Shown piece by piece: positions 1-8,113 of a DNA stretch of 64,000 nucleotides (within the stretch, counting starts at the first letter, position 1; each line of letters opens with the position of its first letter). Location of the stretch: the NCBI GenBank assembly GCA_905236355.1, contig CAJOPG010000134.1, forward strand, positions 4,595-68,594, read 5' to 3'. The position numbers and the translations under genes are program-made. Under the pieces are notes generated by a model. It had not been told where the DNA came from, ran no database searches, and saw nothing but the letters and a program-made list of their open reading frames with translations. The DNA is from Paludibacteraceae bacterium. Its GTDB lineage: Bacteria; Bacteroidota; Bacteroidia; Bacteroidales; Paludibacteraceae.

Positions 1-3000
1 GTTCAATGCCATAAGCAGTGAGGTCAATCTCTGTGGCATCAGCCTGTTTCCAAGACTGCGCATTATCGGTACTTACCAGAACCAGCAAACGGCTGCTGGA
101 AATTTTGTTCGGATCGGTATTATCGCCTTGGAGCGGATGATACAGATAGGTAATATCAAATAGCAACTGTGCATCGTCAGTTATTGCATATTGCGGTGTG
201 ATGAGCCACTTGGTATTTGTCTTGTTATACTCTCCTCCATTATCCCATGAGCATATCTGCTGTGTATTGTCCATCCAGTTATGCCAAAAGTCGGCATTAT
301 GCCAGGAACGAGAAGGATAGTAGGTGCTATTCTGACTCTGCTCTGAAATATTGTAGTTGCCGTTATAGATGGATGCTCCGTTGAATACATCGTTCACCGG
401 AATATTGAGCACAATATTCTCCCAGCAGTTGATTTGAACCGCTGACAATGCGGGTAATGTAGAGAAATCTTCCAGCAACGGCAAATCATATACGCCGCAT
501 AGTGTTCTGAATGTGGCAGGCACGCTCTTGTTGCTCGTTTCGTTTTCGCCGCATACCGTTTGAACGGAAACAGTATAATCGGTTCCGGAAAGCAAACCTG
601 TGAGTGTATAGGGCTGCTCGGTTACATAGATGCTCTCTTCGCCGGTGCCGTCATCATAGTAGATATTCCATGCACTGCCGCCATTTGTCTGCCAGTTCAC
701 AGTTGCCTGATTTTCTTCAATCTGTGTTATCTCCACCTTGGTAGCGGGAACACACGAGGGCAATTGTGTAATCTGAATCGACTTTACACCTACTGTTGCC
801 TGCGAGTTGCCTTTGATAACAAGGAAGTTGCCGGTACCGGAATACGAGTTGGTATAGAACTCAAACTCTTCGGAATCAATATAGAGATAGGATCCGTAGG
901 TACTATTGGTATTCCGCATCTGATAGGTGTAGAGTGTCTCAAAGTCGTCCATACTATTAGGAGCAGAAACCACACCTACATAGATAGGATAGGATGCCGT
1001 GGATGTTACATTCCATACTTCCATTTTTATATCCAGATTGTTGATAGGCGCATCCAGCAAGGGCAATATAGCATATCCGTCCTTCGGAATTGACAGATAA
1101 TTATACTTGTCGGAAGCACCACTCAGTTGCATCTCCGGAGTCTTCACAGCATGTGATGTTGCGGCAACCCCCTGCGAGAGAGTCCAGCATTCAGGTGTTT
1201 CGCCGAACAACTCGGTAAAGGGCACTCCATACGCCTCACAAGCGGTGACAAAATCGTACTCTTTAAAAGTATCTGTAGGTGCACCCACACATATACTGCG
1301 TACATAGAAGGCATACTCGGTATTGGGCTGGAGGCCGCTTATGGTGTAAGTAGGACCGGATGTGATGGTCTCATGTGAGATGAGATCTTCTTCTGCTATT
1401 TCAAACGGATTACTCAGTTTCTTATAGGGCGAAACAACCACCTCGAAATTCTTGAGTTTGCCGCCGTACCATGAGAACGACGCAGAATTGCCACTTACTG
1501 CGGTCAGCTTCACATTCTTGGACTCTGTGCATTCATAATCTTCAATGCTTATGCTGTCAATAGCAACCGGTTCTCCCAATTCGCCCTGCATATACCAGTT
1601 CCACAAAATGTATAGTTGATAAGTTCCGGCCTTCGTTATATCCTTCTTTTCTACTACTTCCACCCACTCACCATCAGTATGGAACACGCGCTGATTATTT
1701 CCGGATGTTCCATTATACGGAATCAGCACATACGACGGATTGCTTTCACTATCCGAAACATAGCTTATGCTGTTGTTTGACAGTGTCTTTATTCCGGAAG
1801 AAGAACCGCCTGTAAATCTAGCTGACGCCGGAACCAACAATACTGCCGGAGCATCTCCGTCATACAGACCGTTGCTCTTGATGCGCATATAGAAGGTGTA
1901 TGAGCCGGGAGCGTCTATCTCTATGGTGCGACGGGCGCGTACAGTACCGAAACCGTCGGGTTTGTAGTAGTGGTAATTCTCACCATCGTCTGATATAAAC
2001 AATGCCTTTTCGCCTGTACCGCCCACTTGGGCTGCATCGCCAATGATGAAGGCATTATGATAGGTCTTCAAATTGAGGTTGTTATTGAACTCCCACAAAG
2101 CATTGTCCTCTGCATCTTCAAATCCAGTATAATACGGGATACCGTGTGCCGCCTTTACCAAATGAACCGATATCGGACCCGTCCAACCGTCATACGAAAC
2201 GGCTCTTACATAGATGTCATAAGAGGTATCTGCTGTAAGTCCGGTCAAAGTATCAGAGGTTGCAGAAATATTCTTCTGTATTCCTTCACCCAAAGCAAAG
2301 CCGCTCTCACCATACTCAACCACCCATTCTTCTACACCCGCCGTATATTCATCAAATGAGAAGGCCGCCCATGTATCACCGAAATCATTCAATGTAAGAT
2401 TATCTACAGGGAATGAAGTCTCAGTGGTTATAAGGAAATTGTCAATCGTTGTAGTATAATTGGAAGTGGTCAAATAGACATACTTGAACTCTTGTACAGA
2501 TTCAAGAACATCACCCACAGGAATTATCACTTTTACAAAACCTGCACCGCCCAGCAGAGTAATTGTCCTTAGCAGTTCGGCATTGGTCACGCCCTCTGCA
2601 TTGTTGGTGGTTGCCAAATAAACGGATAACTCCGTTTGATAGGCAGCAGTTGCAGATGATCCCTGATTCCTTACATCCATACTGATGGTTGCCTTCTTCC
2701 AATCAGCAACACTCAAGGCAGGCGTCATCAATTGGGCACCTTTCGCCAGGTTAAGTGAAACACTACCTCCTTTCTGGTAGGCCGTCGTTGTACTGAGAGC
2801 CCCTGTTGCATTCACTATCGTCCAACCGCAACCTGTTGCCACTGTGGGAGCAGTTACATTCTCCATATAGGGATATTCAAAATCTTCCTTATACGGAAGC
2901 GATGACGCAGGCGCCGACTCTACTGTGGTACGGAAAACAAGCGGCTCGCTCCAGACTGACTGCTTGCCCTCTTTTTCTGCACGCACATACGCTGCATACA

Positions 3001-8113: not shown

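Follow-up and report, generated by a model that had tools for sequence, protein, structure and literature searches.

A very large open frame in an uncultured rumen Paludibacteraceae bacterium probably encodes a ten-module surface protein exported by the type IX secretion system

The stretch analysed here (from here: the window) comprises 64,000 nt of contig CAJOPG010000134.1 of a Paludibacteraceae bacterium (GenBank assembly GCA_905236355.1, positions 4,595 to 68,594 of the forward strand). At its left end, the minus strand carries a single reading frame, called the giant in the following, that extends from an ATG at position 8113 to position 1 with 2,704 sense codons and without a single stop codon. 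The other five frames of the same segment contain 68–166 stops each, and their longest open runs reach 63–196 codons. At the stop rate of 0.055 per codon expected from the base composition of the window, a stop-free run of this length has a probability of ~10^-66. An in-frame TAA is located 6 nt upstream of ATG 8113, which is the first start codon after it, and the residues M1 and K2 do not vary among 22 orthologs. Because of this invariance and the close upstream stop, the start of the giant is well placed at ATG 8113.

The original prediction for this DNA had been made from the letters and a list of open reading frames (ORFs). It held that the list shows nothing longer than 177 aa in positions 1–8113, that a minus-strand frame is open from ATG 8113 to the window edge, and that its product has at least 2703 aa. 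All three statements were borne out, with 2,704 codons as the exact figure inside the window, and the interior parts that had not been translated by hand (5640–4620, 4560–3300 and 3120–1320) contain neither a stop nor a frameshift. The giant gene is absent from the list because ORFs running off the end of the source sequence are omitted there. Hence, its absence is an artefact of the listing and not biology, and the scan missed the window's largest gene solely because edge-truncated ORFs are not listed.

The C-terminus had been placed outside the window, and extension of the contig to the left had been suggested in order to find the stop. A protein search yielded P0001, a protein of 2,997 aa that is 100% identical across the whole query and is encoded on the ENA metagenome scaffolds L001 and L002. 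Positions 1–18113 of the window align to L001 with 99.97% identity and without gaps, for which reason both are regarded as the same strain; within the giant, two codons differ, one synonymously and one leading to K1661N. The exact window allele is P0241 (NCBI and ENA, on a contig of 68,754 bp), which agrees with the window translation at each of its 2,704 residues and is likewise 2,997 aa long. The giant's final 293 codons and its stop reach 881 nt past the left window edge, where the protein ends in a type IX secretion system (T9SS) sorting domain. Given the identical lengths of the P0001 and P0241 records, the frame is intact in three assemblies.

These data bear on the reading that the giant is non-functional, i.e. 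an open frame that arose by chance or a pseudogene in decay. Against it stand the chance probability given above, the same length and intactness of the frame in three assemblies, the existence of intact collinear orthologs, the most distant at 29% identity, in which hundreds of structural residues are invariant, and confidently predicted folds. As far as sequence analysis reaches, this reading is refuted, and we give it next to no credence. With high confidence, the 8.1-kb frame is a real and intact gene of an uncultured rumen Paludibacteraceae bacterium, coding for a surface protein of 2,997 residues that would be exported by the T9SS.

Both ends of the protein carry the signals of such cargo. 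The N-terminal sequence MKKMFTRWLTLCLLLFATVVTNG|Q is divided into n/h/c parts like a signal-peptidase-I signal, with a basic n-region (K2, K3, R7), a hydrophobic core (residues 8–20) and the predicted cleavage site TNG|Q, of which Q24 is invariant in the 22 orthologs. This call, which was made by inspection, agrees with the signal peptide ending in |Q that had been read before. A lipoprotein processed at Cys12 was considered and ruled out, as L-T-L-C is no canonical lipobox and the cysteine is not conserved among the orthologs. At the opposite end, residues 2926–2997, encoded outside the window and taken from P0241 and P0001, match the model TIGR04183 with 37.2 bits (cutoff 23) and PF18962 with 29.0 bits (cutoff 27), and the sorting-domain motifs IYNFAGALV, GMYTVVL and KLIVK can be recognized. 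These matches identify the C-terminus as a T9SS sorting domain of type A, in accordance with the earlier guess of a T9SS substrate and the proposed Por_Secre_tail check. A stalk of ~175 residues follows the last sandwich domain and contains two degenerate copies of a 51-residue repeat with two cysteines.

Between these ends, ten beta-sandwich domains of 155–219 aa (D1–D10) alternate with nine fibronectin type III (fn3) domains (Table 1). BLASTP of the giant against itself found no internal repeats; the sandwiches have diverged beyond the reach of BLAST, and therefore an iterated hidden Markov model (HMM) and profile–profile comparison were needed. An HMM iterated on the giant itself recovered nine fn3 domains ~290 residues apart, and the Pfam fn3 model (PF00041) matched the whole protein in seven stretches with 167.2 bits, compared to a gathering score of 25. 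For the sandwiches, profiles were cut from the ortholog alignment and compared by hhalign. D2, D3, D4, D5, D6, D7 and D9 are mutually homologous at probabilities of 89–99%, those linking D4, D5, D6 and D9 to the choice-of-anchor J group amount to 93–99%, and D1 (84.5%) and D10 (92.6%) are connected to the group via D2. Thus nine sandwiches (D1–D7, D9 and D10) are choice-of-anchor-J-like, while D8 is of a different type and gave no similarity to any of them by hhalign. An ortholog encoded on L004 (32% identical) matches the choice-of-anchor J model NF038128 with 128.6 bits in five stretches and passes the Pfam MAM model as well (35.3 bits versus 26.4).

Adjacent domains are joined by linkers of a few residues, conserved cysteines flank several of the domains, and an alignment of the 22 collinear orthologs shows invariant Trp, Cys and Gly columns throughout the giant. 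The conserved Cys pairs would be compatible with disulfide stapling and a fairly stiff rod. When distant orthologs are compared with P0004, the sandwiches are roughly 27–37% identical and the fn3 domains 34–56%, figures that are uncalibrated against housekeeping genes. The faster divergence of the sandwiches would fit ligand-facing units.

Table 1 Coordinates of the giant gene, its predicted domains and further features of the locus (window positions unless a scaffold is given; residues refer to the respective protein)
Feature	Position	Strand	Basis or remark
Giant gene, first 2,704 codons of 2,997-aa product	1..8113	minus	translation and matching assemblies
Predicted signal peptide, residues 1-23	8045..8113	minus	sequence inspection; Gln at +1 invariant
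D1 beta-sandwich, residues 24-178, weakly MAM-like	7580..8044	minus	hhalign D1-D2 84.5%; MAM 22.4 bits, below threshold; AlphaFold2 all-beta
fn3 no. 1, residues 183-270	7304..7567	minus	iterated HMM; Pfam fn3
D2 choice-of-anchor J, residues 275-436	6806..7291	minus	NF038128 38.8 bits vs 30
fn3 no. 2, residues 441-525	6539..6793	minus	Pfam and iterated HMM
D3 choice-of-anchor-J-like, residues 530-735	5909..6526	minus	NF038128 16.3 bits, below threshold; hhalign to D2 99.1%
fn3 no. 3, residues 739-814	5672..5899	minus	iterated HMM
D4 choice-of-anchor-J-like, residues 820-1038	5000..5656	minus	hhalign to D2 98.3%, D3 99.0%
fn3 no. 4, residues 1042-1121	4751..4990	minus	iterated HMM
D5 choice-of-anchor-J-like, residues 1126-1336	4106..4738	minus	hhalign to D2 98.1%
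fn3 no. 5, residues 1340-1422	3848..4096	minus	iterated HMM
D6 choice-of-anchor-J-like, residues 1428-1644	3182..3832	minus	hhalign to D2 99.2%
fn3 no. 6, residues 1648-1728	2930..3172	minus	iterated HMM
D7 choice-of-anchor-J-like, residues 1736-1900	2414..2908	minus	NF038128 24.5 bits, below threshold; hhalign to D2 97.8%
fn3 no. 7, residues ~1905-1985, weakest fn3, HMM core 1923-1982	2159..2401	minus	iterated HMM 25.3 bits
D8, different type, residues 1990-2200	1514..2146	minus	homology to up1/up2 N-terminus: blastp E 2e-5, hhalign 99.2%; no library model matches
fn3 no. 8, residues 2206-2286	1256..1498	minus	iterated HMM
D9 choice-of-anchor-J-like, residues 2292-2460	734..1240	minus	hhalign to D2 97.8%, D6 98.4%
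fn3 no. 9, residues 2465-2536	506..721	minus	Pfam and iterated HMM
D10 choice-of-anchor J, residues 2541-2704 of 2541-2748, cut by window edge	2..493	minus	NF038128 35.1 bits vs 30, complete domain from L001
51-residue repeat in giant, residues 2750-2850	L001 ~18248-18550		outside window
up1, 1,053 aa, T9SS-type secreted paralog	8315..11476	minus	D8-type N-terminal domain, 51-residue Cys repeats, sorting domain
51-residue repeat in up1, residues ~700-810	9047-9379	minus	
up2, 1,040 aa, first locus gene in window species	11476..14598	minus	29% identical to up1; stop overlaps up1 start
51-residue repeat in up2	residues ~780-880	minus	
Bacteroidetes -7 promoter motif match TATTTTTG (TAnnTTTG), candidate promoter of the locus	14650..14657	minus	HtpG-up2 gap, ~50 nt upstream of up2 start
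C10 peptidase, OmpA-type protein, ~290-aa barrel paralog	L001 19086-21920, 21925-22707; L004 18686-21067, 21064-22857, 2838-3707		outside window

An AlphaFold2 model of residues 24–530 (D1-fn3-D2-fn3, nine sequences) is all-beta with a mean predicted local distance difference test (pLDDT) value of 87.1. Its Foldseek matches are ectodomains with a jelly-roll head and fn3 domains (EphA4, EphA2, RPTPmu), a tandem of the carbohydrate-binding module (CBM) family CBM22, reelin, and accessory domains of endo-beta-N-acetylglucosaminidases. Eph receptors and RPTPmu, with a jelly-roll or MAM head on an fn3 stalk, are the best structural matches to the two-module model; the likeness is structural and architectural alone, at 8–13% identity, and the biology is unrelated. 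These matches, and those to Aureispira GhpA mentioned below, were rejected as specific homology, since they are generic multi-domain matches with low template modelling (TM) scores. With the N-terminal profile, a search of PDB sequences gave a weak match to the K3 adhesin domain of Kgp (3m1h, E 0.012), while the matches of the whole giant among PDB sequences were limited to fn3.

The structural matches to glycan-associated modules raise the question of whether the giant is a fibre- or glycan-capture scaffold, with its jelly-rolls serving, in place of protein-binding adhesins, as CBMs that tether the cell to plant polysaccharide or to host or microbial glycans. All species bearing the locus come from rumen or gut, and the window contains uronate-catabolism genes, an altronate dehydratase and a mannitol-dehydrogenase-family enzyme, which are relevant only in a loose sense. 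However, the similarity to CBM folds is no stronger than that to Eph, MAM and reelin, no CBM or glycoside-hydrolase family was found by Pfam and NCBIfam in the giant and its neighbours, and the enzyme co-encoded with it is a protease, not a carbohydrate-active enzyme. We consider a capture scaffold of this kind unlikely.

Upstream of the giant, two paralogs named up1 and up2 are encoded on the same strand. Their N-terminal domain resembles D8 (Table 1), the Cys-repeat region of the up1 family matches the stalk of the giant (hhalign 98.4%), and the C-terminus of this family matches the sorting domain of the giant (98.0%) and, in profile comparison, the structures of the RgpB sorting domain. The up1/up2 family of ~1,000-aa proteins has more than 800 clusters at 90% identity, in which the named members are called 'hypothetical protein'. 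Close relatives in this family are without a Pfam domain, and up1 itself, scanned in pieces, matched no Pfam family. In its central region (residues ~300–530), H335, E343, D345, H425, C449, D482, C507, H512 and C522 as well as Trp are invariant. With these residues and no matching library family, this region could therefore bind a metal or a ligand or have catalytic activity.

In the AlphaFold2 model of up1 (pLDDT 82.7), beta domains are strung together. The best Foldseek matches are fragments of Aureispira GhpA at a TM-score of ~0.1, a generic similarity between strings of Ig-like domains, and an archaeal S-layer protein is matched as well. The latter match, together with the faster divergence of the sandwiches than of fn3 between distant orthologs (again uncalibrated), would agree with the giant and its paralogs serving not as specific adhesins but as a dense surface coat that is protective or varies antigenically. 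However, no lattice-forming or known S-layer family was matched, and a rod of ~3,000 aa and ten modules suits a fibril better than a two-dimensional lattice, making an S-layer-like coat very unlikely.

The 51-residue repeat shared by the giant, up1 and up2 has the rough consensus ..IC.G(D).Y.F.G..Y...G.Y.DTL.S..GCDSIVTL.LTV. An exhaustive search with the up1-family profile yielded 10,540 representative proteins at E<=1e-30, mostly via this unit. The top matches are giants of 2,000–6,600 aa that match 20–49 times over profile positions ~690–800. In three of these giants, GCD[S/K/T] recurs 39, 45 and 57 times at the exact spacing of 51 residues, and tandem copies in other proteins (up to ~6,600 aa) number 39–65. 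Some of the repeat giants have type B T9SS sorting domains at their C-termini. Pfam and NCBIfam produced spurious summed matches on them and no model for the repeat, and a literature search on a GCDS repeat in connection with T9SS found nothing. The repeat has the appearance of an abundant building block in the stalks of T9SS giants, and the Pfam and NCBIfam copies used here hold no model for it.

The conservation of the neighbourhood was surveyed in one genome per GTDB species. Collinear relatives of the giant at 31–51% identity were found in 11 metagenome-assembled genomes (MAGs), labelled Paludibacteraceae, Bacteroidales or Bacteroidia and derived from the rumen of roe deer, goat, yak and cattle and from pig gut. 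The gene order is constant in 10–11 species, with genes nearly touching or overlapping: a protein of ~290–350 aa, up2 (~1,040 aa), up1 (~1,015–1,060 aa), the giant (2,861–3,624 aa), a C10 peptidase (~680–940 aa) and a protein of ~540–610 aa. The first of these genes is present in most species and absent in the window species. As initially described, the giant comes third in a cluster of genes for large secreted proteins that share one strand, and this cluster proved to be syntenic in 11 species. The genes on either side of the cluster in the window, HtpG and AsmA, were excluded from the locus because they are not syntenic elsewhere.

The C10 peptidase and the last locus gene are located directly downstream of the giant, beyond the window. 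The peptidase consists of an I69 propeptide, a C10 domain (225 bits) and a T9SS sorting domain of its own (23.8 bits), and the catalytic motifs GCVATA and GGHAF are invariant in nine orthologs. Three locus genes carry sorting domains. The last gene codes for an OmpA-type protein with a barrel-like N-terminus, an Ig/CarboxypepD_reg region and a peptidoglycan-binding OmpA_C domain (85 bits); the short first gene of the locus is a paralog of its barrel-like region. An assignment of the barrel-like neighbour as PorP/SprF was rejected, as the PorP_SprF model never matches: it gave no hit at E<=1 in 19 orthologs and paralogs, where weak generic OMP_b-brl matches were seen. On the last gene, the T9SS_PorE model reached 81.9 bits compared to a cutoff of 600 and covered the C-terminal (OmpA) part alone.

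In the gap between HtpG and up2, there is a match to the promoter motif TAnnTTTG (Table 1), a weak consensus that occurs 62 times in the window versus 45 expected. The 201 bp separating up1 from the giant contain neither this motif nor a terminator-like site or hairpin. A promoter before up2 and none before the giant would give a weak hint at one transcript for the locus. A scan for sigma-70 promoters and terminators was uninformative, with results at chance level.

Such a locus could also specify a joint appendage, in which the giant and its paralogs are assembled on the OmpA-type anchor and matured by the C10 protease, in place of a free-standing adhesin anchored to lipopolysaccharide (LPS). 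Several observations point this way: the strict order of five to six overlapping or near-touching genes in 10–11 species; the D8-type domain, 51-residue repeat and sorting domain common to the giant, up1 and up2; the architecture of the last gene; the paralog of its barrel-like part that opens the locus in most species; and the possible single promoter upstream of up2. Analogies exist in Aureispira, where ghpA is followed by genes for a PorP-like barrel and a PorE-like protein with an OmpA domain, the proposed outer-membrane basal body (bioRxiv 10.1101/2024.01.29.577165), as here an OmpA-type protein closes the locus and GhpA fragments are the best Foldseek matches of the up1 model. Proteolytically processed gingipain–adhesin complexes provide a second analogy. 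On the other hand, those GhpA matches are generic, PorP_SprF is unmatched and PorE matched far below its cutoff, the window species lacks the first gene (~290 aa), the type A sorting domain of the giant suffices by itself for LPS anchoring, and synteny indicates co-inheritance rather than physical assembly. We regard an appendage at the level of the locus as rather unlikely. Even more doubtful is an undescribed appendage specific to this lineage of rumen Paludibacteraceae, in which three related T9SS substrates, having a D8-type head and the 51-residue stalk repeat in common, are assembled on a dedicated outer-membrane/peptidoglycan anchor and matured by a protease of their own.

T9SS cargo proteins that bear a Sec signal together with a type A domain fold in the periplasm and are exported, whereupon PorU removes the sorting domain and joins the new C-terminus to a surface glycolipid (PMC5445135, PMC11969387). 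By this precedent, the Sec signal peptide would take the giant to the periplasm and be cut off before Gln24, the all-beta domains would fold there, probably stapled by their conserved Cys pairs, and the T9SS would recognise the type A sorting domain and move the protein across the outer membrane. A PorU-type sortase would then remove this domain and link the new C-terminus via glycan or LPS to the cell surface. The mature giant would be a long fibril resembling beads on a string, with ten modules that each consist of a sandwich of ~160–220 aa followed by an fn3 spacer; judging roughly from its ten sandwiches and nine fn3 domains, it may be ~80–100 nm long. The spacers would hold the diverged sandwiches off the cell, and these are most likely the ligand-binding units, adhesin- or lectin-like in nature. 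As partners encoded at the locus, two T9SS paralogs, a C10 cysteine peptidase that is likewise T9SS-secreted and an OmpA-type outer-membrane protein predicted to bind peptidoglycan come into consideration; the conservation of the latter two suggests a role in maturation and anchoring, respectively.

In those proteins that have been studied, binding is the role of choice-of-anchor J, MAM and gingipain K domains, and it is for this reason that an adhesin- or lectin-like fibril is proposed. For the statement as a whole, that the giant is T9SS cargo and a surface-anchored multivalent fibril, we estimate a probability of about 75%; for a binding or adhesin function taken separately, the odds appear roughly even.

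A number of results weigh against this interpretation. No sequence feature of the giant points to a particular ligand. Only two of the nine choice-of-anchor-J-like domains pass the curated NF038128 cutoff when scanned singly, and the whole-protein NCBIfam scans, performed at 2,704 and 2,997 aa, gave no choice-of-anchor J match; since two domains exceed the cutoff on their own, long multi-domain proteins can evidently lose real hits in whole-protein scans. The MAM model (PF00629) stayed below its threshold of 26.4 bits in the whole giant as well as in D1 (13.4) and D5 (12.3). The original prediction had named fn3, choice-of-anchor J and Cleaved_Adhesin as models to search; the first two match, while Cleaved_Adhesin (PF07675) yielded nothing at E<=0.01 on the whole giant, nor at E<=1 on the ten domains. 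The Foldseek TM-scores of 0.2–0.25 for D1-fn3-D2-fn3, low because the query comprises four domains, indicate a fold class and no specific functional relative. The Bacteroidetes O-glycosylation motif is not enriched in the giant (10 sites versus 11.8 expected), and no T9SS core gene is evident in the window, the remaining genome not having been searched for them.

Among described proteins, the T9SS proteins of P. intermedia come close: like the giant, they combine a Sec signal, fn3 and NF038128 domains and a type A sorting domain in a Bacteroidales host. Judged by their description, the giant differs in its far larger size, the regular ten-fold sandwich–fn3 order that is collinear across species, the additional D8-type domain, the stalk with 51-residue repeats, and the conserved locus with paralogs, C10 peptidase and OmpA-type protein. 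The adhesin regions of HagA and the gingipains of Porphyromonas gingivalis also belong to T9SS surface proteins and show repeated jelly-rolls and an association with a cysteine protease. In contrast to them, the giant does not match PF07675, while HagA lacks fn3; moreover, the protease at the giant's locus is a C10 enzyme encoded by a separate gene, not a C25 gingipain, and processing of the giant is putative. GhpA of Aureispira (a grappling hook of 5,898 aa) and SprB of Flavobacterium johnsoniae (a gliding adhesin of 6,497 aa) are giant all-beta filaments of the T9SS, as is proposed here. They are built from Ig-like and SprB repeats, whereas the giant has choice-of-anchor J and fn3 domains and PorP_SprF went undetected at its locus; its host is an anaerobic rumen commensal, and no sign of oligomerisation, motility or predation was seen.

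On the features tested, the giant thus appears to stand outside the Cleaved_Adhesin family and the SprB/GhpA systems. It is a very large and very regular addition to the known 'adhesin-like' class of T9SS cargo and no new type of system. Its earlier description as the dominant unexplained structure of the window was an overstatement, as relatives are already annotated as choice-of-anchor J or fibronectin type III domain-containing protein. What goes beyond that annotation is the map of ten modules, the D8-type domain common to the paralogs, and the conserved locus. To our knowledge, no member of the fn3/choice-of-anchor J class of T9SS cargo has a demonstrated function, and our literature search found nothing specific on T9SS in Paludibacteraceae or on T9SS fn3 proteins of the rumen. 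The analysis provides a complete domain map for a family of giant T9SS cargo proteins in an abundant uncultured rumen lineage, and the five- to six-gene locus defined here supplies a testable set of partners: protease, anchor and paralogs. Proteins of this type are a likely interface of rumen bacteria with plant fibre, host surfaces and other microbes.

Some variation was noted in the closest GTDB species, represented by the roe-deer rumen MAG RGIG5082 (L003). There, the C10 peptidase gene is tandemly duplicated (20511–23333 and 23517–26312). Its giant has 3,373 aa, with 855 aa compared to 461 aa after fn3 no. 9, and is longer because its stalk of 51-residue repeats is much longer.

The remaining window is ordinary chromosome, with genes such as those for IleRS, PolA, ClpX and HtpG. 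Two AsmA-family genes are present, at 17267–19510 (minus strand) and 53621–56740 (plus strand); the former has an additional DUF748 match, and a DUF6340 gene (19529–20539) comes after it.

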